A DNA stretch of 64,000 nucleotides from Candidatus Saccharimonadota bacterium (GTDB lineage: Bacteria; Patescibacteriota; Saccharimonadia; Saccharimonadales; DTSZ01). Where the stretch lies: positions 684,024 to 748,023 of the forward strand of contig DTSZ01000001.1 in the NCBI GenBank assembly GCA_012965045.1. The letters are read 5' to 3'. How positions within the stretch are numbered: position 1 is the first letter of the stretch; each line of letters opens with the position of its first letter. A program made the position numbers and the translations under genes. Shown here one piece after another: positions 2,950-58,032 of the stretch. The notes under the pieces are model-generated. The model was not told where the DNA came from, did no database searches, and worked only from the letters and a program-made list of their open reading frames with translations.

Positions 2950-3699
2950 TCATGACTTGCTTTCTTTATTCTGCCAATCAACCGCACTCAAGAACGGTTC
3001 AAATAGATCTTCTTCTGGTGATAGCATGCATTCTTTAAGTTCAGCGTGGGTTGGATCTTGATCAGTGAATTCTACAAAATTAGCATCTTCGATGATAGCC
3101 AGCGGTGTTTGTTCCGAGCCTTCACCCATCACTACTACTCCCGCTGCCGCTAAGCCGCCGGCAATGCTAGAATGACTAACCTGCATTTTTTTGCCAAAAA
3201 TGTCGGGTGTGCCGACGTAATTTTTTAAGGCTTTAAATCCGCTAAATGCTAAATATATGCCTGTTGTACCCCGTCGTAGTGGCGTACAACTACTGTCAAC
3301 AATAAGCACTCCACAATTGTTAACGGCATAGTGATCTTGAAGAAAACTACGGAGACGATTTGCAGTAGCTTGAACCTGTTTTGGCCACAATACATATACG
3401 CCATCGGCATTAGACTCATCAATCCCCGCCGAAGCAATGAGAGTGTTATTTTTTATTGTAAACCGGTGACCATATTTACTGCTTTCACGCGGTAAGTATT
3501 TGTCGGCTTCGAGTCTAACTAATTCTTCTTTATCAATTTGGTCATATTCGACAATGTCAGAATCGCAAAGCGAAACTATCTTAGAAGTAACTACTAACAC
3601 TGAATTTTCGCCCAATTGAGGTACTGCTGCAGCTACCACGTCTTCTAGGTTCTGTTGGCCAGCTTGCAACCGATCTGTTTTTACTGCGGTTATTTTCAC
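2950..3699 (-). CDS. CofE-like F420-0:gamma-glutamyl ligase family protein
   Basis: VLVVTSKIVS, AGIDESNADG and VLIVDSSCTPLRRG motifs are characteristic of the CofE/FbiB N-terminal family. Confidence 0.7.
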   Translation of the reverse strand: MKITAVKTDRLQAGQQNLEDVVAAAVPQLGENSVLVVTSKIVSLCDSDIVEYDQIDKEELVRLEADKYLPRESSKYGHRFTIKNNTLIASAGIDESNADGVYVLWPKQVQATANRLRSFLQDHYAVNNCGVLIVDSSCTPLRRGTTGIYLAFSGFKALKNYVGTPDIFGKKMQVSHSSIAGGLAAAGVVVMGEGSEQTPLAIIEDANFVEFTDQDPTHAELKECMLSPEEDLFEPFLSAVDWQNKESKS

Positions 3700-6297: not shown

Positions 6298-7305
6298 TTA
6301 CTTTAATGTTTCAGTTTTAACAGATGAATTCTTTTTGGCAACTTCACGAATATCTTCGTAGCGATCGAATTCGTCAACAATTTTTTGGCCTAAAACTTGC
6401 TCGATTATATCTTCGATACTTATTACACCAACCGTTTCGCTAAACTCGTTCACCACAATGAATAAGTGATGTTGGGTTTTATAAAATGCGTTTAACACGT
6501 GCGCTAATTTATCTTTTTCGTTCACGTATATAACGGTATCGGTCATTACATCGGCTACTTTTTTTGGTTCTTTTTGGGCAACTAAGTCACGAAGGTACAG
6601 CGTGCCAATAATATGGTCTAAATCGTCATTAAAAACTGGGAACCGAGAATGGCCTGATTCGTGTAATTCATTCATTAGTTTGATAGTTGTTTTTTCTTTC
6701 GAACCAACAGCTATAACCATGCTGCGCGGCGTCATTACATCTTCAATTTTTTTATCACCAAAGCTTAGAGCACTATCCACAATCTTTAGTTCGTCCTCGG
6801 CAATGTCGCTTTCGTCGCTTATGCTGTGTTCTTCTAAAATACGAACTAACTCGTCTTTGCTGTAAAACGTTGGTAGCTCTTCACCTAGCGTGCGGTCGAG
6901 CAGTGCTCCAAGCGGTCGGGCAATTGGTGAGAAAAACCACAGTAATCGTTCCATAAATGGTGCAATCTTTGACCCAAAACTAAGTCCATAGCGCCCGAGT
7001 ACTGCCTGTGGAACAATTTCTCCAAAAATTACAATTAGCGTCGTCGATAAAAGCACAGCCATCACCCCATTGGTTATGCTGTCTAAAATTACCGTCAATA
7101 TCGAGTTAACTAATACGTTACCTAGGATAAGTGTAACTAGTAGTTCGCTGCCCCGAGCGCGAATTGGATAAACCAGTGTTGCCTGTTGGTCGCCAAGGTC
7201 GCTTTTTCGTTTTAGTTCGTGAACATCAAGCGACAACAAGCCAAGAGTCAAGCCAGAAAATCCGGCTGAACAAGCCAATAGAAAAACTATAAGAACTATT
7301 TCCAT
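6298..7305 (-). CDS. CNNM/DUF21 transmembrane domain plus CBS-pair protein (hemolysin/CorC-like ion transport protein)
   Basis: N-terminal DUF21-type 4-TM region followed by a tandem CBS region (VEDVMTPR...). No CorC_HlyC C-terminal domain is evident. Confidence 0.8.
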   Translation of the reverse strand: MEIVLIVFLLACSAGFSGLTLGLLSLDVHELKRKSDLGDQQATLVYPIRARGSELLVTLILGNVLVNSILTVILDSITNGVMAVLLSTTLIVIFGEIVPQAVLGRYGLSFGSKIAPFMERLLWFFSPIARPLGALLDRTLGEELPTFYSKDELVRILEEHSISDESDIAEDELKIVDSALSFGDKKIEDVMTPRSMVIAVGSKEKTTIKLMNELHESGHSRFPVFNDDLDHIIGTLYLRDLVAQKEPKKVADVMTDTVIYVNEKDKLAHVLNAFYKTQHHLFIVVNEFSETVGVISIEDIIEQVLGQKIVDEFDRYEDIREVAKKNSSVKTETLK

Positions 7306-7317
7306 ATACGTTGAATT

Positions 7318-7367
7318 GAGTATAGCTTGGAAAAGCCAACAAAACCATAGGCTAAAGTGCTATACTC
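7318..7367. promoter_or_regulatory. mirrored divergent -10 boxes inside a 9-bp inverted repeat
   Basis: GAGTATAGC (7318-7326) and GCTATACTC (7359-7367) are perfect reverse complements. Each strand reads TATACT, 13 nt upstream of the CNNM ATG (7305) and 30 nt upstream of the dsbA-like ATG (7397). Confidence 0.35.
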
Positions 7368-7396
7368 GTACTGTTTAATAACGAGGTTTGGTGTAT

Positions 7397-8134
7397 ATGA
7401 AGGACAATCTATTTGGAATTATTATTGGTGTAGTAGTGGTGGCAATATTAGGGGTAGCAATCGTGGCAGGCGGCGACGACTCCAACAACATCTCTCCCGA
7501 CGGTGATGGTCAAGACATTTTAGAAATATCTGAACTCGATTACGTAAAAGGGTCAGAAAACAGCGAACTAGCGCAAGAACCAAAGGTAACAGTCTTTGAA
7601 TATGGTGACTTCCAATGTCCATTTTGCGGCATTGTGTACCCAATTATCAGTGAAGTTACTGCCGAATACGCAGACAATCCAGACGTTGCTTTCGTTTACA
7701 GGCACTTTCCTTTACCGAGCCATCAAAGTGCTATGGTAGCCCATAGAGCTGCCGAAGCAGCGGGTAGACAAGGTAAGTTTTACGAAATGCACGATATTCT
7801 GTTCGAGAACCAAACACTGTGGGCAGGAGAACCGACTTCACCAATTCCTCCAGACCAGTCTGACGACATAATCCGCGAATTAGCAGAAGAGCTTGGTTTG
7901 AATCTAGAACAATATGATGCTGACTTTGCGGATTCAAGTACTCTCACGACTATTAACCAACAGCAAAAAACCGGTGAAGAAATTGGCGTTAATTCAACCC
8001 CAACCTTCTTCATCAACCAAACTCAATTAGAGCAAGTACCGCGCACAGCTGACGAACTACGCGCAGCAATTGAAGCCGAACTAGAAAAAGTAAACTCCGC
8101 TGAAAGCAGCGGAGAAACCGAAGACCTACAGTAA
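7397..8134 (+). CDS. DsbA-family thiol:disulfide oxidoreductase, membrane-anchored
   Basis: CPFC active site in a thioredoxin-fold context (EYGDFQCPFCG) with an N-terminal TM anchor. ATG 7397 is preceded by GAGG; the track start at TTG 7388 is possible. Confidence 0.8.
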   Translation: MKDNLFGIIIGVVVVAILGVAIVAGGDDSNNISPDGDGQDILEISELDYVKGSENSELAQEPKVTVFEYGDFQCPFCGIVYPIISEVTAEYADNPDVAFVYRHFPLPSHQSAMVAHRAAEAAGRQGKFYEMHDILFENQTLWAGEPTSPIPPDQSDDIIRELAEELGLNLEQYDADFADSSTLTTINQQQKTGEEIGVNSTPTFFINQTQLEQVPRTADELRAAIEAELEKVNSAESSGETEDLQ

Positions 8135-8387
8135 CCAAATACGGTTACTGTTAGTACAGAAGTGGCAGTTTATCTAAATGAACTGGCACTTGCTGTGCTA
8201 CGGGCTTTTGCATTTTTATTTTAATGGACATGCGGGACCTCACCATTTTTGTTTAATTAAGAAAACAAGTAAAACCAATTTGGTTCACTAACGTTCCTCA
8301 CACTTTTTTAATTTTGTTTGAATATTTTTTTATTGCTCAAAAACTTATTTAATACTACTCTTTTGCTTCAGTAAGCACAAGCTTTTT

Positions 8388-9314
8388 TTATAGCCACTTA
8401 TTTTTTCTAAATATCAATATCAAAATAGACGACACAATTATTGTCGAGCTAATAACAATTACGAAAGCGCCTGGTTCGTTTTGAAACGGCAAATCAACGT
8501 TCATGCCATACAACGAGGCGATAATTGTCGGCACAGTTAATACTACAGTTAGCGACGTCAACAAACGAATAACTTGGTTTAGGTTGTTGGTAGAAATCGT
8601 CGAGTAAGCCTCGCGGATCGAAACTATTGTTTTAATATTCGATTTAGCAGACTCAATTGATTGTTCGTTGCTAAGCAACAGGTCCTCGATAAGTTCAATG
8701 TCTTCTTCGAATAATTTAATGTGACGGCCAGTCATTAAACGTTTAAGCAGCGTGTTGGTAGGTACTAGCGCCGACATAAAATCATTTAGTTCATCCTCTA
8801 TAGTCACAAAGCCAATGAAGTCTTTATTGGACACCTGTTCCACTCGTAGACGGTTTCGTACACTAATGATTTGTTTAGAAATTGCTGTTAAGTGACGTTC
8901 GTAATCGTCGACAATATGATCGATGATGTTTAGCAGGAGTTTTACTCGCTGAGTCGTATTTGCCTCTGTTGAATTCATGATTTTTTCTAATCGCGGGATT
9001 GGTCTCAGGCTTATTGTCATTATGTAGCTACCCGATATAGCAATCAGTATTGGAACTGTAACAACTTGCAGATTAGTGTCTGTCAACGGAAAGCGAGTAA
9101 ACACATAATGAATATTATCTTCAGTCTCAAAGCGTGGAACCTCATCAATATCTAATGCATCTTCAAGCATGCCTTCGTCGATTTTAAACGTGTCAGTTAG
9201 TATCTGTTGCTCTGCATCTGTCGGGTCTTCAACATAAATCCAAGAGCCCGCTTTGTGTGAATCAAGCTGCTTAAATTTTTTGCTTTTTATGGTTTTGTGC
9301 CAGTACTGAATCAT
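8388..9314 (-). CDS. corA: CorA-family magnesium/cobalt transporter
   Basis: YGMN signature (SLYGMNVDLPF) before the last TM helix; 308 aa. Confidence 0.85.
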   Translation of the reverse strand: MIQYWHKTIKSKKFKQLDSHKAGSWIYVEDPTDAEQQILTDTFKIDEGMLEDALDIDEVPRFETEDNIHYVFTRFPLTDTNLQVVTVPILIAISGSYIMTISLRPIPRLEKIMNSTEANTTQRVKLLLNIIDHIVDDYERHLTAISKQIISVRNRLRVEQVSNKDFIGFVTIEDELNDFMSALVPTNTLLKRLMTGRHIKLFEEDIELIEDLLLSNEQSIESAKSNIKTIVSIREAYSTISTNNLNQVIRLLTSLTVVLTVPTIIASLYGMNVDLPFQNEPGAFVIVISSTIIVSSILILIFRKNKWL

Positions 9315-9359
9315 CGTAGTTTAATCATACACGATTAAAAATGCCTTATACTAAGCAGT

Positions 9360-9884
9360 ATGAAAATACTTAAAAGAAAAGTTCGCCTGCCCTACGAGCA
9401 AGAATATTTTAAATCGATAATTAGTGGTAGCAGCGCTGGTATATCGACGACGACAGCGATAATTATTGGCTTAACTGTATCCGAAACTAAGATTGCAGCC
9501 ATCACCACAAGTGCAATTGTTATTATTTTTATTCAAGCTTTCAATGCTGCGGCTAGTCGGTTTGCAGATTTGCGCACCGCCCAAGAAATCGACGGCGAAA
9601 AAGTTTTAAAAACTAAGTTCCCGCTTACTGTTGCGTCCATTCAGTTCGCTTCGCACACCTTTTCCGGCCTCATAGCGCTGACACCGATAATTTTGTACGG
9701 CACTGAAAGCGGCGTGCTGGTTACTGTAGCGGTGAACACCTTTGCGCTGTTTTTACTTGCTGTGTATAAAGTCAGGGTCTTAAAAGTTAACGCCTTGTCG
9801 GACATTGCCGAATTTGTGCTTACTGGGCTGCTTGTGATGTTGGTTGGCCTGGGAGCTGGTTTACTGCTTGAACTTAGTGCCTAG
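9360..9884 (+). CDS. polytopic membrane protein, possibly VIT1/CCC1 family
   Basis: 174 aa with 4-5 TM segments. Topology and the loop SRFADLRTAQEIDGEK are loosely VIT-like. TATACT-N7-ATG promoter-like context. Confidence 0.4.
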   Translation: MKILKRKVRLPYEQEYFKSIISGSSAGISTTTAIIIGLTVSETKIAAITTSAIVIIFIQAFNAAASRFADLRTAQEIDGEKVLKTKFPLTVASIQFASHTFSGLIALTPIILYGTESGVLVTVAVNTFALFLLAVYKVRVLKVNALSDIAEFVLTGLLVMLVGLGAGLLLELSA

Positions 9885-10437
9885 AATAAACAGCCTGATC
9901 AGTGACAACAAAATCTAGCTGGACGTCATGATCTTCAGTAGGAATAACTTCAACTTTATCTTCATCAAAGGCAATACCAATTTTTATAGCATCGGGATAG
10001 TGCTTTAGGAATCGATCATAATAACCGCCGCCGTAGCCAAGGCGATTCAGTTGTTTGTCAAAAACAAGTAGTGGAACTAATATGATATCGATTTTTTTAG
10101 GGGTCATAACATCATCGCAGTCTGGTTCTGGTATGCCGCGCATATTTGGAGCAAAATGAGTGTCTTTTTCAACCTTAACAATTTCCATGTCTCGGCCAAT
10201 CAAACGGGGAACATAGGTTGTAGCTGTTGGTCGTCGCCACAACATACTAAAAATAGGTGTGGTTTGCGGCTCATTCATCATGTCATTGCTGACGTAGCTG
10301 TGAATGGACTTAGCTTTTGGCCACTCAGTTATAGTCTTGAGATTTTTAGCAATGTTTTTAGACTTTTCTTCAACCTCTTTGGCGGTAAGGTTCATGCGCA
10401 CAGCTTTAGCGCTTCGTCGTAAGTCTTGTTTATCCAT
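9874..10437 (-). CDS. 5-formyltetrahydrofolate cyclo-ligase
   Basis: Family-typical N-terminus (KQDLRRSAKAVR) and the LGYGGGYYDRFL motif. Confidence 0.85.
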   Translation of the reverse strand: MDKQDLRRSAKAVRMNLTAKEVEEKSKNIAKNLKTITEWPKAKSIHSYVSNDMMNEPQTTPIFSMLWRRPTATTYVPRLIGRDMEIVKVEKDTHFAPNMRGIPEPDCDDVMTPKKIDIILVPLLVFDKQLNRLGYGGGYYDRFLKHYPDAIKIGIAFDEDKVEVIPTEDHDVQLDFVVTDQAVYSRH

Positions 10438-10458
10438 TACTTAAAAGCTTATGTTTTT

Positions 10459-11889
10459 TTATGCTGCTAAGGCAAGTGATTTATCAGAGTTCGTTGGACA
10501 ATTTGGATTTCGGCAATAATTATCAACTTCACCTGTCTCATTATCAATCACACTTACGTAGCCTTTTTCTGGACACTTTTTACATGCACTTCCTTCAAAG
10601 CTAACGGCAGTTTTATTGCCAGAAACTTCTATCCCCAGCCCCGATAAGATCGCCAATTCTTTAGACGAGGCTGGTCGTACGCCACACTCCATTCCGCATA
10701 CTGCCGTTCGTTCAATTGCTGTTTTAAATAGACTGCTATCAAGGGTTGTTGCTTCAATGGTTTTACCTTGTTTTATTAAGGCTTGTAGCGCAACGTAGTC
10801 TTCACCAATCTCTTTACCGTATGCTCTAACGCCAATTTGTGGCTGTTCTTTAGAGATTGTATGAATATGCGTAGCAAGGTTCAGTTGAAAAGCTTTTTCT
10901 TTTTTTCCTAGTGACATTTCAAGCTGGGAAAGTTTAATGATCTCCCCTGCAACTTTATTTCGAAGTCTTGAGATCTTTTTTCGATATTCACTAAAACTAT
11001 CGAAATAGTCTCTGTAATCTTCGGTCCTCCACGCTGTTAGTGTTTTTTGACCCAAGGCAACATCCGGCCCAATACAAGCATCAAGTATAGAAAGAACTTC
11101 TAATAACGATTCGCTGCCGCCAGCTTTACGAGTGATCGCAGTTTGCAGTGCTTGGAGCGGAGTTGCGGTCGGCAAGGTATAGTCCGCGCCGGCCTCTTTT
11201 AGAAAGTCGGCGGTTTTATAATCGTCGAGTAAGCGGCCATCGAAGGAGACTGACTGAGTGAAAACATATACTTTTCCTTCAGACTCTTCAAAGCGCCACC
11301 GGCGCACCATGCCTTTTTTTATTTCGTGAACAAAATCGGCATCCTCTGTTTCCCCGCAGCGAGACAAAAAAAACAGCTCATGGTTCTTGTAAGTGCCGTC
11401 TGCCAAGACACTAAGGACTGTCTCGACTTCAGCATCTTCTGCCGCGCTCCGCTCATTGATCTCAGCGATTTTTGAACGACCGAGGCCCTTCTTACTCTGC
11501 TGTCGCAGGGATCGATCGTCCATGATAATGTCGCGAGCAACAGGGTCATAAGCCCCTTGAACTTCGGCGTATTCTTCTGGCGCCATACGGGTAGCTGCTT
11601 CTTGCAGCGCAAATTCTGCATTATTTTTAACAGCTGCAAAACGCCGCGGTTTATCAGCGCCAGTTGCGCGAATATATTCATCGCCGTAACTTGTAAAGTC
11701 CCAGCCAAGAATTGATTCTTCGTCTACGTTTCTTGAATCAAAACCAGTAATTTCTAGTGGAGCTGTTTCTAGACTGGTTGTATGTTCAGAAATTTTAAAA
11801 CCCTCGCTTTTATTTTTGAAGCAAGGGTTACATACCACCGTAACAACGGTTTTATTTCGCCTTGCTCGAGACATTATCATCAAAAACAC
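10459..11889 (-). CDS. hypothetical protein with C-terminal Cys-rich zinc-ribbon-like tail
   Basis: 476-aa ORF with no family recognised. C-terminus CKKCPEKGYVSVIDNETGEVDNYCRNPNCP (CxxC...CxxxxC). Confidence 0.6.
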   Translation of the reverse strand: MFLMIMSRARRNKTVVTVVCNPCFKNKSEGFKISEHTTSLETAPLEITGFDSRNVDEESILGWDFTSYGDEYIRATGADKPRRFAAVKNNAEFALQEAATRMAPEEYAEVQGAYDPVARDIIMDDRSLRQQSKKGLGRSKIAEINERSAAEDAEVETVLSVLADGTYKNHELFFLSRCGETEDADFVHEIKKGMVRRWRFEESEGKVYVFTQSVSFDGRLLDDYKTADFLKEAGADYTLPTATPLQALQTAITRKAGGSESLLEVLSILDACIGPDVALGQKTLTAWRTEDYRDYFDSFSEYRKKISRLRNKVAGEIIKLSQLEMSLGKKEKAFQLNLATHIHTISKEQPQIGVRAYGKEIGEDYVALQALIKQGKTIEATTLDSSLFKTAIERTAVCGMECGVRPASSKELAILSGLGIEVSGNKTAVSFEGSACKKCPEKGYVSVIDNETGEVDNYCRNPNCPTNSDKSLALAA

Positions 11890-12102
11890 ATTCTATCTGG
11901 CTCAGTTTGTTCTTTCCCCTTGTAACTCAGAAAAAGAGCAGCCCGAGTGGCGAATTCAATTCGCACCCGGCACAACGATAAAAACCGTAGTTTTTTCTCG
12001 TTAACCTTACAGTTGCGGCACAGCTCCGGTATCCCACCGGTATTTCGAACTGTGTTTTTGTTTAATTGTTAACACTTTTATCCTAATACCCCTACATATA
12101 GT

Positions 12103-12783
12103 GTGTCAACGATTTTATTTACCACAATTTGTGTACGCGATGTATTTATCCAACAATACGATATAATTAGTTTCGTGAAGCAAAATACAGCCCTCACTAC
12201 CACACTCATAACGGTTTTTAGTTTATGGTTTATTTTTGGAATTATTAGGTTCATTACTTTGCCGGCTAACGACATTCACTACCATGCAGATTTCGCTGTT
12301 TTTGTTGATGGTGAGCAACTTATGTTTGAAAATCCTCTCTACTACGAAGAAGTTGGCAGCGGATGCACATTAAGCGAAGACTCTAAGCCAGCGGAACGAG
12401 CTCATCTTCATGATCAAGTACCCTCAATTATTCATGTCCACGACCGTAACGTTACGTGGGGCCATTTCTTCAATAACATCGACTACTCAATCGGTGAGTT
12501 TCATCTTGAAACATGGGAAAACGCCTATACAGAAACAGGTGACCAACAAGTCCGCTATATTCTTAATGGCAACGAAGTTCAAGACATAAAAAACCGAGTG
12601 ATTGAAAGCCAAGATCGCCTATTAGTCGACCTCAGCAGCGCCAGCGACCAAGAATTACTGGAACGTTTCGAAACAGTATCAACAGAAGCAGAAACCTATA
12701 ATTCTCAACCGGACCCTAGCGCCTGCAGTGGCTCAAATCGCTCTACCAGCGACACACTAAAAGAAGCATTCTTTTTCTTATAA
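12103..12783 (+). CDS. membrane-anchored extracytoplasmic hypothetical protein (His-rich)
   Basis: 226-aa ORF with a GTG start. One TM (LITVFSLWFIFGIIRFITL), then HYHADF...HLHD...IIHVHD motifs. The start is uncertain. Confidence 0.5.
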   Translation: MSTILFTTICVRDVFIQQYDIISFVKQNTALTTTLITVFSLWFIFGIIRFITLPANDIHYHADFAVFVDGEQLMFENPLYYEEVGSGCTLSEDSKPAERAHLHDQVPSIIHVHDRNVTWGHFFNNIDYSIGEFHLETWENAYTETGDQQVRYILNGNEVQDIKNRVIESQDRLLVDLSSASDQELLERFETVSTEAETYNSQPDPSACSGSNRSTSDTLKEAFFFL

Positions 12784-12793
12784 AAATTCGGTC

Positions 12794-13390
12794 TTAAGTT
12801 TTTAAAACCTCTTCCGGTGGGACTATCGGCGAGTATATGCGCGCACCTTGTTTCATTGCGGCATTAACTAACGAGCCCGCTGCGGAATTAAAATCATCAT
12901 CTGAACTTTCGGAGTGCATAAACTCAGTAAATCTTTCAATTGCTTCGGCGAAGGCCTGGGTTTTTTCGGTGTTTACAACATTTTCGTAATTTGAGGTGCT
13001 ACGGTACTTGTTTGGCACTTCGATATCAAGAAAATTCAGTCCTTTTGTAAATGCATAATAACCCCTAAAAGTCGTGCCCTTAATGCCTAGCTCAACCCTT
13101 AATTGCATTTGTGTTACAGGTTCGCCGGTATCAATCGACATCGTGCCTCTTAATTTTTCTTCAAACTTTATCCAAGCCTTTTTTGTAATAGCCCAATCAG
13201 GATTCTGTCCGTCGTAGAACAAAAATCCTTTTACCGCGTCTTCCTCAGCTCCATGAGCTTGGAGATGAAATGGCAAAGAACCCGCTAGCTCTGTAATACA
13301 ATCATTAATACGAGCTGCATTTTCATATGAAGGTAATTGATCGCCAGGATCTGATACGTTAGGTGGGAATTCCATTACTATATTATACAA
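12794..13390 (-). CDS. hypothetical protein
   Basis: 198-aa ORF in tandem with 13411-14232. No family recognised. Confidence 0.55.
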   Translation of the reverse strand: MYNIVMEFPPNVSDPGDQLPSYENAARINDCITELAGSLPFHLQAHGAEEDAVKGFLFYDGQNPDWAITKKAWIKFEEKLRGTMSIDTGEPVTQMQLRVELGIKGTTFRGYYAFTKGLNFLDIEVPNKYRSTSNYENVVNTEKTQAFAEAIERFTEFMHSESSDDDFNSAAGSLVNAAMKQGARIYSPIVPPEEVLKT

Positions 13391-13410
13391 TATAGTTGTG
13401 TATTTCTCAA

Positions 13411-14232
13411 CTACAATCTGAGTTGTTGCCGACTATGCTCACTGTCGTGTTTTTGCCTTGTAAGCAAGCGCAGTATTTGGCTGCGTGTAGCTGCCGGACC
13501 TCTGCCAAAGTTAACTACTTTGATGTCACTTATTGGTTCTGTATTCTCGCCCTCTAAGGTCTGGGCTGGGTACAAGGCTTGAATGGCGTCAAAGCCGATA
13601 CCGATCGACTTCACTACCTGTGGTTGGTCGAGATCTACGATACCTATCGGGCAAAATGCAGTTGTTCGCCGAGGGTGAAGTAAAAAATATAGCTTACAAA
13701 CCGACCGCAAAATCTTGGTCTGACTAAAGTTCAGCTCAATGTCTTTTTGTGGTGAAAATAAATACAGCACTGGTTGACTAACAGACGACCGCTGCAGCTC
13801 TTTAAAAAATTCCTCAAAAAACTCAATACCACTCGGGTCAAACAAAACATGTTTGTCGCTCGCCACTCCAACTAATCCAGCAAAGCGTTTACGCAGTAAG
13901 TCGACTTTGTTTTTAAATAGCATTGGCTCGCTATCGTTTACAAACAGCGCCGTAGACTGAGCAATTTCCGTGGACGAGACAAGTCTAATTTGTTCATAGT
14001 CGTCCTTGGCAAAATCCAGCGTGTCGGTAATAAATGCCCTAAAATCCTCCTGCGACTGATCACCTAACAAATAACGCGCACCGCCAATATCTACAACAAC
14101 AGCCTTGCCAGCCTCAATATCTTTAAGCGCTTTTTTCCGAGCAGACTTCGCCGACATCAAACCATAGCGTGGATGAAATAAATGCAGAAGTCTGACCCGC
14201 AGTTTATAGATGTTATTTTTCACTACTCGCAT
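13411..14232 (-). CDS. hypothetical protein
   Basis: 273-aa ORF. It contains VVVDIGGARYL, vaguely like an actin-fold phosphate-1 motif, but this is not sufficient for a call. Confidence 0.55.
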   Translation of the reverse strand: MRVVKNNIYKLRVRLLHLFHPRYGLMSAKSARKKALKDIEAGKAVVVDIGGARYLLGDQSQEDFRAFITDTLDFAKDDYEQIRLVSSTEIAQSTALFVNDSEPMLFKNKVDLLRKRFAGLVGVASDKHVLFDPSGIEFFEEFFKELQRSSVSQPVLYLFSPQKDIELNFSQTKILRSVCKLYFLLHPRRTTAFCPIGIVDLDQPQVVKSIGIGFDAIQALYPAQTLEGENTEPISDIKVVNFGRGPAATRSQILRLLTRQKHDSEHSRQQLRL

Positions 14233-14280
14233 TGCTTTAGTATAAATACTACAGCTGATTTATCGAGCTTAAGCGTTTAA

Positions 14281-15894
14281 TTACTGCTGTTGAAAAAGCT
14301 GAACATCATCGGGTTGACCAAGCACATAAGCCCACGCCGGACCTACTTCGTTGTCATAGTTATGCCCAAAGCCTGAAGGCATATTTATGGAACGAGTTAA
14401 CTCAAACCCGACTTGCCCAAACGTAATAAATGGTCGCCACCGCATATGCTCGTAGACTCCTTGAGCGTTTTCGTCCTCTAGCCAGTCTGGTTTGTCATAC
14501 AGCAACCTCGGGGTCACCCACACTACTGGGTCAGTTGGGTTGTATAAAAAGGCAAACTTCTCTTCTCCCCACTGGTCATAGTCCGATCCAAAATGGTCAA
14601 CATCACTGGCAAATCGAACCACTTCACCGTTTTGATACACAGGCTCCAAAATATCGCCGGCTGCTTGTGGCAACAGATGTTTCCATAAGCCGCTCGCCGA
14701 AGGCGATCCAACCCACAACGCACCATCAATGCTGCTGCTAAATTCGCTTGGTTCAAAACTTGGCAAGCTCCCTTGTGAACCAAGTGAGCCTAAACTTTCT
14801 CCGTATAAAAACAGTTGTGGTGGCTGCGCCATTGATTGGCGTTTTTGTTGAATTGCTTCAAGAGTTAGGGCGGTTGTGTGTTTGGCAATGTCCGCATCAT
14901 CTACATACTGGACAAAAGACGACACCAAGCCGTACTGAACGGCTACCGACGCAACGTCACCATCTAAAATCACCTCTGCTGCCGCAACCGCACTGGGGTT
15001 AACATAGCCACTGCCTGACGGTGTATACAGTACAATCGTAGACCGCTCAAATGCCCCAGTCCGTTCCATTTCTTGCATGAGTAGCTCTACCTGACCGTCA
15101 ATCGTGTCGGCGTTCAGCTTGCCAACATACAGACGAATCGGCTCTATCGCCGGCTGACCGGTACGCTCCGATATTGCCTCGGCCGTTAATACCTCGCCCA
15201 CAAAGTCTCTGCCTGGACTACTTAGCAGCAGCCAGTCAACAGCAGAGTTTTCTGAACCGCTTACTAAGTCCGACTCACTCAGCGTAACATTTAAATCAAG
15301 CGCAATAGTATTACTGCGCAAAATACTGCGTGTTGCAATAAAGACACAGGCCATAAATACTGCAAAACCAAATAGAATACTGCCAACCGCCAGAACCTTG
15401 CTAAGCCATCGCAAGCGACGAGCGTACACTCTTACAAGCATTCGATACAATCGTTTAATACAGCTAACTATCATGCTAATAACAACTATTGAAACAATGC
15501 TAAGAATCAATACAACTGCCACGTTAGGGGTAGTTGTTTCTAGTCCCATTGCGTGACGCTGCTGTGTCTGCCAATTCATCCGTTGAACGGTTACAGTCAC
15601 GGCATAGATCAACAACAAGGCCACATAGGCTATGTATGTTCTGCGGGTAAAAGCAGGCGCCGTATACTTTGCATGCCGCCGCCAAGCTGCCCCCAGCCGC
15701 TCACCTATCACATAAAAAATCATTATAGTCAGGGCGCTCAGTAGCACTTGGTTAAGCGTATTACGGGGGATTAAAGACGGAGCCAACGATTCACCGTAAA
15801 AGTAGACAGCAAATACCGTTCCCAGTACTGAATAATGCGGTTTAGGATTTTTAACGAATAAATTTTGTTTAAAGGTGTGCCAGAACTTTCTCAT
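14281..15894 (-). CDS. membrane-bound alpha/beta hydrolase (Abhydrolase_9-like)
   Basis: N-terminal multi-TM region plus a C-terminal hydrolase domain with the nucleophile elbow GESLGS. The architecture matches the membrane alpha/beta-hydrolase family seen in Actinobacteria. Confidence 0.7.
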   Translation of the reverse strand: MRKFWHTFKQNLFVKNPKPHYSVLGTVFAVYFYGESLAPSLIPRNTLNQVLLSALTIMIFYVIGERLGAAWRRHAKYTAPAFTRRTYIAYVALLLIYAVTVTVQRMNWQTQQRHAMGLETTTPNVAVVLILSIVSIVVISMIVSCIKRLYRMLVRVYARRLRWLSKVLAVGSILFGFAVFMACVFIATRSILRSNTIALDLNVTLSESDLVSGSENSAVDWLLLSSPGRDFVGEVLTAEAISERTGQPAIEPIRLYVGKLNADTIDGQVELLMQEMERTGAFERSTIVLYTPSGSGYVNPSAVAAAEVILDGDVASVAVQYGLVSSFVQYVDDADIAKHTTALTLEAIQQKRQSMAQPPQLFLYGESLGSLGSQGSLPSFEPSEFSSSIDGALWVGSPSASGLWKHLLPQAAGDILEPVYQNGEVVRFASDVDHFGSDYDQWGEEKFAFLYNPTDPVVWVTPRLLYDKPDWLEDENAQGVYEHMRWRPFITFGQVGFELTRSINMPSGFGHNYDNEVGPAWAYVLGQPDDVQLFQQQ

Positions 15895-15910
15895 CTAGCA
15901 CTATTCTACT

Positions 15911-16423
15911 CTATTGAACGACGAGTGTGCCCACCATTCCTTGCTCGCGGTGATTGCCGATACTGCAGTAGTACTCATATTCACCCTCGGCATCGGCTGG
16001 TACTGTAAACGTTACGCTAGTTGTCTCGCCAGTATTAATAGTTTCACTCTGTACACCAAACTCATCGATCACAAAGTCATGAGTTCCACCGGAGTTGATC
16101 AGGTTTACTGTAACCGTGTCACCTGGGCTGGCCGTAATTAAATCAGTCGAAAATTCAAAATTACTCATGTCCACGTCAACGGTTTCGCCGGGACCGGTTA
16201 AATCACCGGGGGTGTCAGACTGCTGGGCTTCTGGCGAACCGCTCAGGGCTGTGCCAGAGGCAGAATCACTGGAATTTACTGGTAGCTCATCTTGGCTTGC
16301 CGTCTCTGTGGTTGTTTCATTTGACTCATTGTTATTTGCATCACCATCGTTCAATAACAAAAAGCCAATCAACCCAAACCCGATAATAAGCACACTTACA
16401 CCTGCAATAATATTTTTATTCAT
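15911..16423 (-). CDS. cupredoxin (plastocyanin/halocyanin-like type 1 blue copper protein), membrane-anchored
   Basis: Copper ligands His (GGTHDF) and C-x5-H-x4-M (YYCSIGNHREQGM). Start set at ATG 16423 with a perfect GAGGAGG SD 6 nt upstream. Confidence 0.8.
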   Translation of the reverse strand: MNKNIIAGVSVLIIGFGLIGFLLLNDGDANNNESNETTTETASQDELPVNSSDSASGTALSGSPEAQQSDTPGDLTGPGETVDVDMSNFEFSTDLITASPGDTVTVNLINSGGTHDFVIDEFGVQSETINTGETTSVTFTVPADAEGEYEYYCSIGNHREQGMVGTLVVQ

Positions 16424-16510
16424 TAACGCCTCCTCTTTTATTTCCAAAGCTTAGTATAGCAACTGTAAGTTTTTTGTCTTAGCTGATGTAAGTAGTCTAC
16501 AATTACATTC

Positions 16511-17032
16511 ATGGATCATCACTCTCACCACACTCCACCGGCATCTACAACTACTGAATACATCAAATTTGGCGCCATTGTAGCGGTAATTTTAATTGCG
16601 TCCTACGCACTGTATAGCCAATCTGCCACTCAAACCTTTCAAGAGTACTTACGGTGGTTTATGGGAGTATTTATGCTGACCTTTGCTGGCTTTAAGTTAG
16701 CTGGCTACAAAATGTTTGTGATGATGTTTCCTGGTTATGATCTTATCGCTCAAAAATCTAAAACCTACACTTATGCATATCCGTTTATACAACTTGGGTT
16801 AGCAATTTTATTCTTAGCAGGCGCTATTGGCATAATTCGAGAGGCGCTAACACTACTTATTGGCACTGTCGCCGCTGCAGGTGTATATAAACAGGTGTTT
16901 GTTAAAAAACAAACCATTCAATGTGCGTGTTTGGGGAACATCATTAAATTACCACTTTCGACTGTAAGCTTTTTTGAAGACTTTGTAATGGCGGTAATGG
17001 CAGCGATCATGTTGGCGCTACGGCTGATTTAA
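16511..17032 (+). CDS. 4-TM membrane protein, MauE/DoxX-like
   Basis: 173 aa, four TM helices, CACLG motif reminiscent of MauE-family proteins. TACAAT-N7-ATG promoter-like context. Confidence 0.45.
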   Translation: MDHHSHHTPPASTTTEYIKFGAIVAVILIASYALYSQSATQTFQEYLRWFMGVFMLTFAGFKLAGYKMFVMMFPGYDLIAQKSKTYTYAYPFIQLGLAILFLAGAIGIIREALTLLIGTVAAAGVYKQVFVKKQTIQCACLGNIIKLPLSTVSFFEDFVMAVMAAIMLALRLI

Positions 17033-17198
17033 CTACGTCAGGTGTTTGTTGGTAAGATTAATATCTATATAAAAATATTCACTTCTTTTATTTGGCATGC
17101 CCTTTAGTATATACCGACTACGTCGAGTTCTAGGTGGCAGTTAACACTTATTTAATGCCCTCGTCCGTACAATTCATAACTACACTAATCAGGGGAAA

Positions 17199-17450
17199 AT
17201 GTTTATGTCACTAACAGACAAAATTAAAAGCGCTATTCCAGGCACAATTGACGATAAAATTATTGATCAAGTCGTAGAATCTACTCAATCAGTCCGTGAT
17301 GGTGCTACAAACACTGGCTTAAAAGGAGCTAACATGGTTGACGAGGCTATGAACAAACTAACAGATGCAATACCCGGCACGCTCGACGACAAGGCCTATA
17401 ATAAAGTTAAAGATTTACTTGGTGGCGACAAAACTGGCGACGAAAACTAG
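17199..17450 (+). CDS. small hydrophilic protein with two IPGT(I/L)DDK repeats
   Basis: 83 aa. Internal repeat (SAIPGTIDDKIIDQV / DAIPGTLDDKAYNKV). CsbD/stress-protein-like composition; the family is uncertain. Confidence 0.5.
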   Translation: MFMSLTDKIKSAIPGTIDDKIIDQVVESTQSVRDGATNTGLKGANMVDEAMNKLTDAIPGTLDDKAYNKVKDLLGGDKTGDEN

Positions 17451-17461
17451 TTAGGAGATAC

Positions 17462-18232
17462 TTAACTCGGTATTAAAGTATTCGCAAAAATTTGAATTGC
17501 TAGAGCGGCTTTTGCGGTAAAGCTCAAAATAATATAGGCTTTTTCGCCGCGCAGATAATTCTTCCACTTGCCGCGGGCCTGATACTGCTTAAATTGCACG
17601 TAGGCGAACGAGTTAAATAGCAAGAATATTGAAATAATTATGCCGTACACAAATGCCGGCGGAGACGCATCTGTCGGGTTGCCAGGTGCAATTACAGCAA
17701 TCAATATGACAAGCCACGGAATAATTCCAGCTATACTCCCAAACACAAACGGCAACCAGTTGCCGTTACCTGGTTTTTCATACTTCTCTTGCAGCCAGCC
17801 AAATAAAATCATTGCTACATTCACCCCGGCGATGGCTATCAGTGCCGCGTAGCTACTAATACCTGTAATAAGTGCTATTAAAATAATCATGAGTGTTGAG
17901 CTGAATGAATATTCTACCCACCGAAAAACATTAATATTATTTTTTAGTCCTGCAATGTAACTACTAAAAAACTTATTCGATGCTACTAAAAAGTGGAACA
18001 ATGCCGACAAGCCCAAAAACAAGGCAACAGCTGGTCCAATTTGCAGATTAAACAGGGTGACAGGATCAGTAAAGCTTGACCCCGGCGGCCCAGCTAAGTA
18101 GGTGGCAGTAACAGGTAGCGAAAATGAGTTTGAGGCGACTAAAACAAGAACAGCTAAGGTGCTATGAAGCAACCCAGCAAATATGTTCAATCTGCGTAAA
18201 TTCTGCTTATCTGCTTTTCTAAGCCCCGCCAT
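17462..18232 (-). CDS. heliorhodopsin
   Basis: 256 aa, seven TM helices, long blocks matching heliorhodopsin 48C12 as I recall it (FRWVEYS, ILFGWLQEKY, GKW-NYLRGE-AYI). Counter-ion Glu at residue 107 and Schiff-base Lys at residue 241 (SFTAKAALAIQIF). Confidence 0.9.
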   Translation of the reverse strand: MAGLRKADKQNLRRLNIFAGLLHSTLAVLVLVASNSFSLPVTATYLAGPPGSSFTDPVTLFNLQIGPAVALFLGLSALFHFLVASNKFFSSYIAGLKNNINVFRWVEYSFSSTLMIILIALITGISSYAALIAIAGVNVAMILFGWLQEKYEKPGNGNWLPFVFGSIAGIIPWLVILIAVIAPGNPTDASPPAFVYGIIISIFLLFNSFAYVQFKQYQARGKWKNYLRGEKAYIILSFTAKAALAIQIFANTLIPS

Positions 18233-18321
18233 AACAGTATATTACCATCAAATATGAAAGAAATAGCAACTACTAGGCAGCCTTCAGTTGGGCTACCTGA
18301 TTACAGTTAGTTTCACTTTGT

Positions 18322-18726
18322 TTAGTACTCTTTTTCGTTTAAAACCACTAGTTTAGCTATGCCCCAAGCAATGAGACCATAAACCGCTATTGCTACTAAA
18401 ATACTTGGCTCAAACACTGCCTGGTTACTACCAGCTTCGGATTGGGTGACTCCAAATATGCTATCAAACGGCGCGCTCAAGACGCCACTAGTGGAATATA
18501 TAAACTCAACGAAGGCATTGCCGCTATTTGCTCCAAAAAGCTTCAACACCATTCGCAGACCAAGAAGTACCGCAATAAGCCCGTAGATATACCAAATAAC
18601 ATTAACGACCCTTGCCTTAGACCCAATTTCAGTTTCTACTGAACGAATTCTCTCTTCTACAACCGAGCCACTGCTATCAACACCCGTTCTCGCTTCTTTG
18701 ATTTCTTTTGTGCGGTAGTCTGCCAT
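18322..18726 (-). CDS. membrane protein (YggT-like segment?)
   Basis: 134 aa: hydrophilic N-terminus and two TM helices. 1-nt overlap with the upstream gene. Confidence 0.5.
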   Translation of the reverse strand: MADYRTKEIKEARTGVDSSGSVVEERIRSVETEIGSKARVVNVIWYIYGLIAVLLGLRMVLKLFGANSGNAFVEFIYSTSGVLSAPFDSIFGVTQSEAGSNQAVFEPSILVAIAVYGLIAWGIAKLVVLNEKEY

Positions 18727-18974
18727 TATTTTCGTACCGCTTTTAGTATCCCAATAAATATCACCGACCCAGTTACAGCTACAAACAAGCTATATAAATC
18801 AAAACCGTCAGCGTCATCCCCGCCAATAGCACTCACTAAAAAACCACCAATCATAGCACCGACAATACCAACCACAATATTAGCAAGAGCTCCTTGTTGC
18901 GCGTCGGTGTTCATTATCTTAGATGCTATCCAACCAGCCAAAGCCCCAAACAATATCCAAGCCAAGAATCTCAT
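18726..18974 (-). CDS. GlsB/YeaQ/YmgE family (transglycosylase-associated) stress membrane protein
   Basis: 82 aa. GALAGWIASKI...IVVGIVGAMIGGF glycine-zipper TM pattern typical of the family. Confidence 0.8.
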   Translation of the reverse strand: MRFLAWILFGALAGWIASKIMNTDAQQGALANIVVGIVGAMIGGFLVSAIGGDDADGFDLYSLFVAVTGSVIFIGILKAVRK

Positions 18975-19262
18975 TACGGCCTCCGTTATTTAATATTTAT
19001 ATTGTCGGACCTAGCAGCGCAGCAAACCGTATAGAGGTATATAGTTTTCTCACATATTTGTGGATAACAAATTTTTAAGTTAATAATTAGAAATTCAACA
19101 AAAAACCAGTTTCTTAAAACTAAAGCTAGTAGTCTGATTTGACATAGCTCTTAGAAAAGTTAAGGTTGTTGGCATCGTGCTGGCAAAACTATGCTTTGTA
19201 ATCAAAATTTGATGCTTGCTGAACCCTTCATTTATTAAAAAATGATCTCGGGCCAAACTCGG

Positions 19263-19297
19263 TCACATTCTGCCTCACATTCTGCCTCACATTCTGC
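19263..19297. repeat. 12-nt tandem repeat (tcacattctgcc) x 2.9
   Basis: Read directly: tcacattctgcc tcacattctgcc tcacattctgc, inside a 545-bp non-coding gap. Confidence 0.9.
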
Positions 19298-19488
19298 AAG
19301 CCCAGAAAAACTAGATCGAAATCAAAGTTTTCGTCTGTTTATTCTCTTGCAAACTGTCAATGGCGGTTCTCACCCCGTAATTTCGTTCAATCCAACAAGT
19401 TCGATGTAGAAAGTTTCCTTGCAACATACTCCCAGCATGCTTCACCGCCAACACCGGTTCAAGTTTGCACTCCAAGAGTGCTAAAACT

Positions 19489-19517
19489 AAAATAACGCCC
19501 AAAATGGACGTTATTTT
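19489..19517 (-). terminator. putative intrinsic terminator downstream of tRNA-Asn
   Basis: 9-bp stem AAAATAACG/CGTTATTTT with an 11-nt loop, starting 4 nt after the tRNA 3' end. On the minus strand the 3' arm ends in TTTT, followed by AGTTTT. The AT-rich stem makes it weak. Confidence 0.35.
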
Positions 19518-19521
19518 AGTT

Positions 19522-19596
19522 TGGCTCCCGGGGCCGGACTTGAACCGGCAACCTTGAAGTTAACAGCTTCCTGCTCCACCATTGAGCTACCCGGGA
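19522..19596 (-). tRNA. tRNA-Asn (anticodon GTT), CCA encoded
   Basis: Manual fold: acceptor TCCCGGG/CCCGGGA, D arm GCTC-AATGGTG-GAGC, anticodon loop CTGTTAA, T arm GCCGG-TTCAAGT-CCGGC, discriminator G, CCA. 75 nt. Confidence 0.9.
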
Positions 19597-19747
19597 TTTA
19601 TGCTTGCGCTAATGAGGCAAACCTACGGTTTTTCTCATCGGGCTTTAAAAAACGCAATTTTTATCTGCATGAATGCAGACCAGCCCTGCTCTTTTCCCTA
19701 AGGAAAGACTAACGGCTAGTATAACGACTAGTCACCCCTTGAAGCAA

Positions 19748-29837: not shown

Positions 29838-30181
29838 AAATAACTAGTTCTTATTAATACTTATTTATGTGGAGTCGTGCTGTCATTAACTCCTTTAGCG
29901 GCTTTAAGATAAAAGCGGAAGCTTAAATACATAACTGTTCGCTCGAATTTTGATGTCACTACCGTCAAAGAGTTCGCTATTCATAATTAACTTCTGGAAT
30001 CCAACATCATCGGTAAAATAGTCTTGGGTTAAGTAAAACCAAAATTGCCACATGAACATTATTACTACATTTAGCAGGAAGAAGCCCTTCACAGAAGAGA
30101 GTTACATAATCTTAATGGAGATACTTTGACTGCATCTGTTAACGCTACTGATCGGTTTTCTTCTGACCTCATTTTCATGAA

Positions 30182-31240
30182 TCATTTATTTGCACCTCTT
30201 AGTGCAGCCTTCAACAGATCTACGTTTTTCTCCGCAAGAATCTGCAGCTCTTTTACTTTGGATGTTTCAGCAGCCTCTAGTCTGACAGCAGGATCAGAAA
30301 AAAGACTCAATTTTCTTTTTAAATCGTCTAACTGATTTAAGTCTACGTATTGTTTTTTAAGAACTTTATCGTCTGCCATGCAAAGTCTATATTGTTTACC
30401 ACCTTTTGAACCTATGGGTAAAATAGGTTTCTTTGCAAGAATTGCTAAGATAATTGAATGAAAACGCACACCTATTACATAATCAACTTGTTTATACGCC
30501 CACCACAGTTTTGAAATATCTTTCGGGCTCTTATAGTTAATGACTGTAATTTTATGTTTTGATTTGAGTCTGTCGATATATCCTTTGTCGTCTCCCGAAT
30601 GCTGCAAGAACCAGAAATCGTATTTATCGTTGTTTCTATTAATGAAATCATCAATAATTTTTTCGAAATTGCTTATAAACTTTTTAAAACTTTCGCCTTT
30701 TACTTTTTTTAAGTCAACTAATGAAAGTCCGATGATAGGTTTTCTCTTGCGATAAAGGTATTTTCTTGGGCTACTCCATTTTGGAAGCCAGTTATCTGCT
30801 AAAAAAGCAATATCTTGCGTTGTAACGGCGTTATTGATGCCTATTTCATTCAATAGCGCTTTATCTGATTCACTTCTAACACTAAGTACATCCAGCTTGG
30901 ACAGATATTTCTTATATTGCTCTCTGCCATAGTCAGAAGCTATGCCCTGCACCCCCATTGAAATCGCTGCCTTTATTGTACGAGGTTCAGCAAATTTAAA
31001 ATAATCCATATAGTTTTTTACATTTGCTTTATCGGTATCATAAATTAAACCTCCGCCCCCTAGAACAACAACAGTCTTATCCTTTAATAAATTTTGAGCT
31101 ATAGGAGGGCTAGTAATTTCAATTTTTCCGATGGTTGTTGCAGCTTTAGAAATTGCATACTTAGTAGAAAGAGCGCATATGTCATCTCCCGCATTGCCGT
31201 ATTTGTACGCAGAAACTACGAGAACGTTGATTTTTTTCAA
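30182..31240 (-). CDS. polysaccharide pyruvyl transferase family protein
   Basis: N-terminal YGNAGDD motif and C-terminal VIGVRFHSIILAILAKKP, typical of CsaB/WcaK-type pyruvyl transferases. AT-rich codon usage. Confidence 0.8.
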   Translation of the reverse strand: MKKINVLVVSAYKYGNAGDDICALSTKYAISKAATTIGKIEITSPPIAQNLLKDKTVVVLGGGGLIYDTDKANVKNYMDYFKFAEPRTIKAAISMGVQGIASDYGREQYKKYLSKLDVLSVRSESDKALLNEIGINNAVTTQDIAFLADNWLPKWSSPRKYLYRKRKPIIGLSLVDLKKVKGESFKKFISNFEKIIDDFINRNNDKYDFWFLQHSGDDKGYIDRLKSKHKITVINYKSPKDISKLWWAYKQVDYVIGVRFHSIILAILAKKPILPIGSKGGKQYRLCMADDKVLKKQYVDLNQLDDLKRKLSLFSDPAVRLEAAETSKVKELQILAEKNVDLLKAALRGANK

Positions 31241-31277
31241 AATTAATTACCTTCCTATTATTCTGAGGGTTGCTACA

Positions 31278-32606: not shown

Positions 32607-32622
32607 AAGGAATATGCTTTAA

Positions 32623-35589: not shown

Positions 35590-35602
35590 GACACTCCTAG
35601 AC

Positions 35603-38968: not shown

Positions 38969-38970
38969 AA

Positions 38971-58014: not shown

Positions 58015-58032
58015 GTTTTTAGTTTAGCAAAA

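Follow-up and report, generated by a model that had tools for sequence, protein, structure and literature searches.

A heliorhodopsin (HeR) in a bacterium with a reduced genome raises the question of what such a protein could do there, where its retinal would come from and on which partner it would act. This question is posed by a 64,000-nucleotide stretch of a Candidatus Saccharimonadota bacterium (assembly GCA_012965045.1, contig DTSZ01000001.1; hereafter the window), in which an earlier sequence-only reading, made without database searches, had proposed a 256-aa heliorhodopsin with intact Schiff-base lysine and counter-ion. The proposal was borne out: positions 17462-18232 (minus strand) encode a full-length heliorhodopsin with the HeR fold and, by analogy with characterised members of the family, it is probably a functional, non-pumping photoreceptor of an episymbiotic Saccharibacteria cell, operating with scavenged retinal and with a partner encoded elsewhere. 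HeRs in Saccharimonadia are already established, and the presence of HeR, the lack of a retinal pathway and a probable retinal supply from actinobacterial hosts have all been published for this group; the window HeR adds a further member that is ordinary in kind. The unusual point is its deep-sea hydrothermal-plume provenance. The physiological role of HeRs is understood only in part, and with a genome of about 0.93 Mb the candidates for a partner number fewer than 1000 proteins.

The open reading frame (ORF) runs from ATG to TAA over 256 codons and has exactly the coordinates first proposed. Its sole Pfam match is PF18761 Heliorhodopsin (291 bits against a cut-off of 26.7, profile positions 1-242 of 242), and the NCBIfam equivalog NF038020 “heliorhodopsin HeR” scores 296.7 bits against a cut-off of 100 (positions 1-244 of 244). 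The hidden Markov model searches gave no other seven-transmembrane family, and the type-1 rhodopsin profile PF01036 (Bac_rhodopsin) was without a match at E <= 0.01. When the PDB sequences were searched with phmmer, the best matches were three depositions of HeR 48C12 (E ~1e-93), followed by a Thermoplasmatales HeR (E ~1e-53) and then by the 317-aa HeR 9vfc. A family alignment of 120 sequences, comprising the window HeR and 119 database relatives (69-78% identical), served as input for an AlphaFold2 (AF2) model, which reached a mean predicted local distance difference test score (pLDDT) of 85 and a predicted template modelling score (pTM) of 0.82, and which has seven long helices together with a two-stranded sheet in the first extracellular loop (strands 38-43 and 58-64). 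Compared with the PDB by Foldseek, the top matches of this model were all HeRs, with 48C12 (6su3_A) at a template modelling (TM) score of 0.94 and a root-mean-square deviation of 1.9 A, and TaHeR at TM 0.82-0.86; type-1 rhodopsins reached just 0.55-0.66, at 11-15% identity. The identity of a type-1 microbial rhodopsin was ruled out by the missing PF01036 match, a Ser in place of Asp at position 237, the opposite charge distribution and the low TM scores. In public records the protein appears as HIA92182.1 and HIO87873.1, [quoted passage not shown], and is under-annotated as a “hypothetical protein”; close relatives are already named “heliorhodopsin HeR” at NCBI.

The alignment with 48C12 covers residues 10-256 in both proteins without a gap, with 148 of 247 positions identical (60%), and therefore the 48C12 numbering carries over one to one. 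The translation carries FRWVEYS, whose Glu is residue 107, and SFTAKAALAIQIF, whose Lys is residue 241; given the gapless alignment and the fold match at TM 0.94, these two residues are homologous to the 48C12 positions, as had been claimed. The residues H23, S76, H80, N101, R104, W105, E107, Y108, S112, N138, M141, W146, E149, P172, W173, F203, F206, Q213, Y226, S237 and K241 are the same in both proteins. Within the family alignment, the window HeR retains all 84 of the 84 invariant columns, K241, E107, H23, H80 and S237 among them. [quoted passage not shown]

The lateral fenestration was assessed with a published motif, which calls for aromatic residues at 162 and 206, small residues at 166 and 210, and G169, the opening residues of 48C12 being F162, C166, G169, F206 and A210, with N207 adjoining (bioRxiv 10.1101/2025.11.27.691015). 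The motif of the window HeR reads FSGFNA, which is found in 18 of the 120 sequences (FCGFNA in 100), and judged by the motif alone the fenestration appears intact. With loop boundaries taken from the 48C12 alignment, 16 Lys and Arg residues fall in the N-terminus and the B-C, D-E and F-G loops whereas neither the C-terminus nor the A-B, C-D and E-F loops hold any, a positive-inside signature that points to an inverted topology, with the N-terminus probably cytoplasmic and the C-terminus outside. Between the window HeR gene and six Saccharibacteria HeR genes, the proportion of differing synonymous sites (pS) is 0.81-0.88 and that of non-synonymous sites (pN) 0.15-0.26; dN/dS can be taken qualitatively only, because synonymous sites are saturated (pS >0.8), and read in this qualitative way the values indicate strong purifying selection over the whole divergence from these relatives.

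The HeR gene probably forms a transcription unit of its own. The same-strand gene upstream stops 89 bp ahead of the HeR start, the gene downstream runs towards HeR with the two stop codons 11 bp apart, and the end of the spacer before the HeR start reads TGgTAATAT-ACTGTT-ATG. The pattern TGnTAnnAT recurs 6-8 nt ahead of the HeR ATG in six further Saccharibacteria loci (L007, L011, L087, L088, L089 and L090). We infer a promoter that serves HeR alone and a leaderless mRNA that carries no other gene; an operon with the upstream Transgly_assoc and 134-aa genes is unlikely, given the 89-bp gap and the conservation of the -10 element at the ATG of other Saccharibacteria HeRs. The significance of the -35-like hexamer TTGCTA is doubtful, its spacer being suboptimal, and a stricter scan for consensus two-hexamer promoters listed neither this hexamer nor the extended -10 site. 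Throughout the window, -10-like hexamers, often of the form TGnTAnnAT, are frequent 5-9 nt before starts (examples lie at 38522, 23716, 57127, 15911, 13411, 20604 and 9360), and just 15 of 55 genes have a Shine-Dalgarno-like motif, which suggests that leaderless transcripts are common in this genome and its relatives. The leaderless arrangement at HeR would then be a general habit of these genomes and not a device specific to HeR. A terminator-like hairpin at 17748-17767 was set aside; it lies inside the coding sequence (CDS), and hairpins of this kind are about as frequent as chance predicts (4 found against 2.9 expected).

The sequence-only reading had seen no carotenoid or retinal biosynthesis gene in the window and had suggested that the chromophore may be scavenged. 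In agreement with the former, the blh, crt and Bac_rhodopsin families had no match among the window ORFs of at least 110 aa, nor among the called genes in the 10 kb past either window end. Rhodopsin-bearing Saccharibacteria are reported to be without blh, and a retinal supply from co-occurring Actinobacteria has been proposed for them (Jaffe et al. 2022, PMC9296517); a passage of the same paper, citing Shihoya 2019, has HeR taking up external all-trans retinal quickly via an opening of the apoprotein. Because no blh or crt was found in 84 kb, the fenestration motif is intact and this published work on Saccharibacteria points the same way, retinal scavenging by the host of the window HeR is supported by analogy, though not proven.

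For a partner, several precedents are available. HeRs regulate glutamine synthetase (GS) via positively charged residues of the intracellular loops (PMC9529153), photolyase (PMC9769723) and an ABC transporter (PMC11109279), and Cho et al. 2024 (PMC11109279) list ten recurrent partner classes, namely GS, NAD+ synthetase, photolyase, MerR, TerC, ABC transporter, short-chain dehydrogenase/reductase (SDR), alpha/beta hydrolase, DUF2177 and DUF2238. The sole listed type near the window HeR is the Abhydrolase_9 protein (alpha/beta hydrolase), which is not in the HeR transcription unit, and GS, photolyase or a multidrug-resistance (MDR)-type ABC transporter were not found in the 84 kb surveyed around HeR. 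The small stress or membrane proteins that the sequence-only reading named as neighbours are present as described, and this part of it stands; as functional partners they were rejected, being conserved at no other HeR locus examined, so that they carry no evidential weight. Because these genes reappear beside HeR at none of the 84 further loci compared, synteny names no partner and the neighbourhood is without functional information.

In the mechanism we propose, what is demonstrated is the HeR family and fold, the signature of the topology, the photochemical residues, the motif of the fenestration and a promoter element of its own; the later steps are modelled on characterised HeRs, chiefly 48C12. 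The HeR apoprotein would insert with its N-terminus in, and the cell, making no all-trans retinal, would take it up from its host or surroundings through the fenestration. All-trans retinal would bind K241 as a protonated Schiff base balanced by E107, and green light would isomerise it to the 13-cis form. The Schiff-base proton would then pass to an internal cluster of E107, H23, H80 and water without release to the bulk, as is known for HeR (PMC9726877). A long-lived photo-intermediate would shift the conformation of the K/R-rich cytoplasmic loops, which may bind a partner protein and modulate its activity by light. That partner would be encoded elsewhere in the ~0.93-Mb genome, because the HeR gene appears monocistronic and its neighbourhood is not conserved. 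Published proposals for CPR HeRs are that they guard against oxidative stress induced by light and that they signal via histidine kinases (PMC9166423; PMC8612252).

Where the organism lives bears on this photoreceptor reading. The identical protein is encoded by a 929,678-bp scaffold (scaffold_1, ENA assembly ERZ23486381) annotated as Candidatus Saccharibacteria bacterium, in keeping with the reduced genome assumed earlier. Six places are listed for it, all from one data set, among them JGI 3300001522 “Mariner”, SRR1217452, SRR1217567 and two “ANAN14-1” assemblies; the two runs carry the label PRJNA234377, hydrothermal vent metagenome. The Mariner field lies at a depth of ~1.9 km. Zhou et al. 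2020 included PRJNA234377 in their read sets, and the Lau Basin material of that study was collected on a 2009 cruise from deep-sea hydrothermal plume and background seawater (PMC7367891); the Lau Basin samples have also been described as deep-ocean hydrothermal ecosystems (PMC8190135). We found no publication on the Lau Basin Saccharibacterium genome. Six assemblies of the locus (L001-L006), from various Lau Basin runs and assemblers, are near-identical in DNA to window positions 7462-28253 over 1.9-20.8 kb; four show no difference, L002 has one mismatch and one gap, and L005 one mismatch. This near-identity indicates a clonal population and makes within-population polymorphism unusable for estimating selection. 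The long contigs of the locus come from one sample and other samples yield pieces of 2-6 kb; the population was possibly abundant in a single library.

The 90%-identity cluster of the window HeR has a single member, with its nearest relative 79% identical and more than 100 database relatives at 70-79% identity. This isolation argues against a widespread laboratory contaminant, and residence at depth is not thereby shown; the clonal, possibly single-sample occurrence leaves room for sinking, advected or introduced cells. The habitat reading hinges on evidence of residence at depth, which the available data cannot supply. Elsewhere, rhodopsin potential in the CPR is described as confined to organisms of sunlit environments (Jaffe et al., PMC9296517), HeR in Thermoprofundales is restricted to a surface-associated subgroup (PMC9585477), and in marine Acidimicrobiales the proton-pump rhodopsins are confined to photic-zone genera, with HeR turning up only sporadically in two other genera, in 4% of their genomes (PMC10205998). 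A deep-sea plume organism with an intact HeR would depart from this pattern and, if it truly resides in the deep sea, would be relevant to the question whether HeRs require sunlight at all. That a resident of permanently dark plume or bathypelagic water keeps an intact HeR under selection seems to us unlikely; were it so, the protein would sense non-solar light such as bioluminescence or vent glow, or act independently of light, in a ~900-gene organism where its partner should be findable.

In a neighbour-joining (NJ) tree of 54 sequences, midpoint-rooted and built without bootstrap or outgroup, the branch of the window HeR is fairly long and falls within a coherent clade of HeRs of the Saccharibacteria type, which itself sits among actinobacterial HeRs, 48C12 included. 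The tree is compatible with a putative exchange of HeR genes between Saccharibacteria and the phylum of their usual hosts. Saccharibacteria cells are bounded by a single membrane. HeRs are held to be restricted to monoderms (PMC8612252; bioRxiv 10.1101/2025.11.27.691015); a HeR on JBEIHR010000026.1 (59% identity), binned to a Rubricoccaceae metagenome-assembled genome of a diderm lineage and placed with Nanopelagicales sequences in the NJ tree, would contradict this restriction unless it is a binning error.

Several observations weigh against the photoreceptor reading. Every copy recovered is from a deep-sea plume or background sample, out of reach of sunlight, where light sensing in situ is not self-evident. 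The window HeR departs from the consensus at 7 of the 156 columns that are at least 90% conserved (family median 2); the estimate of purifying selection spans the whole divergence, from which the terminal branch is not separable, and the absence of blh and crt covers 84 of ~930 kb. The genomic context names no partner: the transcription unit of the window HeR includes no gene of the ten classes of Cho et al. 2024, and when nine flanking proteins were compared by tblastn with the sequence up to 10 kb from HeR at 80 loci, there were zero matches, even at E = 0.1. These loci were drawn by a pattern scan of GTDB species representatives (about five from Saccharibacteria/Saccharimonadales, the rest mostly Actinomycetota; best match 75%). 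The four closest Saccharibacteria loci (L087-L090, on long contigs) lie in four unrelated contexts. Among the relatives, the HeR P0006 adjoins an MMPL transporter, an AAA_33 protein and an alcohol dehydrogenase; P0003 adjoins hydrogenase maturation genes and an SDR; P0028 (Ca. Saccharimonas aalborgensis) has AAA_33, HAD and RRM proteins as neighbours; and downstream of P0009 (L088 5261-9896, GCA_014377345.1), in the same orientation, come a PAS-GAF histidine kinase of 869 aa, a hybrid kinase and three response regulators. This last arrangement fits the idea of kinase coupling (Bulzu et al. 2021), and the window does not share it.

Given the dark source, the gene might be an idle leftover in permanent darkness or without retinal, present as apoprotein or not made at all, and not yet decayed. 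The confinement of HeR to sunlit-habitat members in other lineages (PMC9585477; PMC10205998) would agree with this, as would the rank of the window HeR as fourth most deviant of the 120 sequences at near-invariant columns. All seven deviations are conservative, however (S11N, F22L, Q121L, S140A, I163V, S185N and S187T), the frame and the promoter element are intact, no invariant residue has been lost, and useless genes would be expected to go quickly from a streamlined genome of 0.93 Mb, so we consider an idle leftover improbable. The same source, and a 74% homologue in the activated-sludge Ca. Saccharimonas aalborgensis, suggest retention where light is scarce and could be accommodated by a light-independent role, in which the protein binds anions in its cytoplasmic cavity or serves as a dark scaffold or regulator with retinal as a structural cofactor. 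AbHeR does bind GS already in the dark (PMC9529153), and the cytoplasmic cavity of 48C12 binds acetate and possibly carbonate-like anions (PMC10434121; PMC9529153). A purely dark function would nevertheless have no need of the photochemistry residues K241, E107 and S237 and the retinal-pocket aromatics, which are invariant across the family, and no HeR has been shown to act without light; we regard this role as quite improbable.

Two further explanations keep the light and change its use. Proton transport is conceivable in that V2HeR3 shows the HeR scaffold able to move protons (PMC9448325) and that CPR bacteria, being without most of the respiratory chain, could use a proton-motive device (PMC9166423). 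The closest characterised relative is nonetheless 48C12, at 60% identity, a type whose proton is not released to the bulk (PMC9726877); the internal acceptors H23, H80 and E107 are all conserved, the subfamily of the transporting viral HeRs is without the fenestration motif that the window HeR possesses, and light-pumping Saccharibacteria use a separate type-1 rhodopsin with a DTS motif (PMC9296517). Together these points leave a transporter extremely unlikely. Alternatively, the fenestration may bind an exogenous xanthophyll that passes energy to retinal, so that light capture with two antennas would be the main role. The carotenoid-binding motif is complete (aromatic 162/206, small 166/210, G169 and N207; FSGFNA), and the preprint that supplies it, with a figure of “91.3% of HeRs”, argues that the single membrane of Saccharibacteria lets exogenous pigments reach HeR (bioRxiv 10.1101/2025.11.27.691015). 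That single preprint works from docking and sequence motifs, without a demonstration of carotenoid binding by HeR, and states no use for the captured energy in a non-pumping HeR; moreover, the part of PMC9296517 that cites Shihoya 2019 already explains the same opening as the entry route of retinal. We hold the antenna as the main role to be rather unlikely, though it supplements the best explanation and does not exclude it. A functional, non-pumping photoreceptor with scavenged retinal and a distant partner remains the probable explanation.

Compared with characterised systems, the window HeR is nearest to 48C12, from an actinobacterial fosmid of Lake Kinneret (PDB 6su3, 6su4, 6uh3 and 9ljj), to which it aligns with the same numbering and with identical fenestration residues F162, G169, F206, N207 and A210. 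It differs in having Ser for C166, SFTAK for SLVAK and several helix-surface substitutions, and the host of 48C12 is an actinobacterium of a sunlit lake, whereas here it is a Saccharibacteria episymbiont from a deep-sea source. In a screen of 1,326 CPR genomes, Saccharimonadia accounted for 80 HeRs (Chiriac et al. 2022, PMC9166423); these, P0028 of Ca. Saccharimonas aalborgensis included, share with the window HeR the phylum, the family and the predicted leaderless extended -10 arrangement; no retinal pathway is reported for the clade (PMC9296517). The published set comes mostly from freshwater, engineered and other habitats, unlike the deep-sea plume of the window HeR. TaHeR of the Thermoplasmatales archaeon SG8-52-1 (PDB 6is6, 7u55 and 7clj) has the same fold at 42% identity, but it is archaeal, far more distant in sequence and has Tyr in place of F162. 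According to the part of PMC9296517 that cites Shihoya 2019, the HeR examined in that work, which quickly takes up external all-trans retinal via a lateral opening, is used by organisms without a retinal pathway; it is the model adopted for chromophore scavenging by the window HeR.

The pairs AbHeR-glutamine synthetase, TfHeR-photolyase and OcHeR-OmrDE ABC transporter belong to the same family and were adopted as the mechanistic template. In AbHeR the partner is bound by K/R-rich cytoplasmic loops (PMC9529153), and the loops of the window HeR are K/R-rich too; in all three pairs the partner gene is in the same operon, whereas the window HeR appears monocistronic. The SacRs, type-1 rhodopsins of Saccharibacteria with a DTS motif (Jaffe et al. 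2022, PMC9296517), are alike in host phylum, dependence on external retinal and a similar modelled lateral hole. They differ as N-terminus-out, outward proton pumps with a second Asp counter-ion where the window HeR has S237, and no SacR gene was found in the 84 kb surveyed around it. V2HeR3 is alike in family membership alone, being a proton transporter of a viral subfamily without the fenestration motif (PMC9448325). Membership of the window HeR in this viral subfamily 2 was rejected; it has the motif and clusters with Saccharibacteria and actinobacterial HeRs, the two being set apart by the motif criterion with no viral sequence aligned.

Table 1 Coordinates of the heliorhodopsin gene, its key codons and promoter elements, and the neighbouring genes (window positions)
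Feature	Position	Strand	Basis or remark
Heliorhodopsin CDS, 256 aa + TAA stop	17462..18232	-	ORF, Pfam, NCBIfam, PDB, AF2/Foldseek
Codon AAA, Lys241, retinal Schiff-base lysine in helix G, motif S237-F-T-A-K241	17510..17512	-	48C12 alignment, invariant in 120
Codon GAA, Glu107, single Schiff-base counter-ion in helix C (FRWVEYS)	17912..17914	-	48C12 alignment, invariant
Codon CAT, His23, of the His23/His80 proton-accepting cluster of 48C12	18164..18166	-	invariant in alignment
Codon CAC, His80, of the His23/His80 proton-accepting cluster	17993..17995	-	invariant in alignment
Lateral fenestration span (F162, S166, G169, F206, N207, A210)	17603..17749	-	codons verified, motif comparison
Extended -10 element TGgTAATAT, ending 6 nt before ATG, without Shine-Dalgarno	18239..18247	-	read from sequence
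Weak -35-like hexamer TTGCTA, 19 nt upstream of the -10 hexamer	18264..18269	-	read from sequence
134-aa membrane protein	18322-18726	-	
Transgly_assoc (GlsB/YmgE-type) membrane protein, 82 aa	18726-18974	-	family match
Acidic 83-aa protein with internal AIPGT(I/L)DDK repeat	17199-17450	+	
MauE-family protein	16511-17032	+	family match
Cupredoxin	15911-16447	-	family match
Abhydrolase_9 protein	14281-15894		two opposite-strand genes and the cupredoxin gene lie between it and HeR

Upstream of the Transgly_assoc gene, a non-coding spacer of 547 bp (18975-19521, minus strand) extends from tRNA-Asn and is long for a streamlined genome. It contains a terminator-like hairpin directly after the tRNA and a tandem repeat at 19274-19297 (GCAGAATGTGAG x2 and a partial third copy). 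A non-coding RNA in this spacer was considered and dropped, Rfam giving nothing credible, as was a genomic island at the tRNA-Asn (19522-19596), for which a search of 7000-19700 gave no repeat resembling an att copy of the tRNA 3′ end and the GC content is unremarkable.

The rest of the window is consistent with a small CPR genome, with an origin region, a monoderm-type type IV secretion system (T4SS) cluster and many genes without a family assignment. In the origin region, jag/KhpB (41788-42243), yidC (42240-43073) and rnpA (43135-43482) lie on the minus strand, and dnaA (44052-45419), dnaN (45711-46835) and a recF-like gene (46955-47971) diverge from the rnpA side on the plus strand; HeR is ~26 kb from dnaA. 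The T4SS cluster occupies 50589-63850 (minus strand) and continues in the adjoining sequence (L092 1-10000). It includes a TraG/VirB4-like ATPase (54134-56107), a TraC-like protein (56107-57039), a PrgI-family protein (57127-58014), two TrbL_3-like proteins (907 and 963 aa) and an 1181-aa ORF without a family match, and six tandem T4SS_pilin genes follow just past the window end.

Between 21351 and 38330 lies a cell-surface glycan cluster with two NTP transferases, Wzy_C, Bac_transf, several GT4 glycosyltransferases, a pyruvyl transferase, an FkbM methyltransferase and an ABC-2/Wzt exporter. Within it, positions 30000-36000 have a GC content of 0.35 against ~0.42 elsewhere, and this stretch may have been acquired horizontally. 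A CofE-like gamma-glutamyl ligase at 2950-3699 (minus strand) matches F420_ligase PF01996 and TIGR04132 “putative folate metabolism gamma-glutamate ligase” (268 bits, where the cut-off is 350); such a ligase is unexpected in so reduced a genome, and a 5-formyltetrahydrofolate (5-FTHF) cyclo-ligase lies near it (9874-10437). Finally, an 812-aa multidomain protein at 38956-41394 (plus strand) combines cutinase, VWA and fibronectin-III/purple-acid-phosphatase-N domains and may be an enzyme with which the episymbiont acts on the surface of its host.

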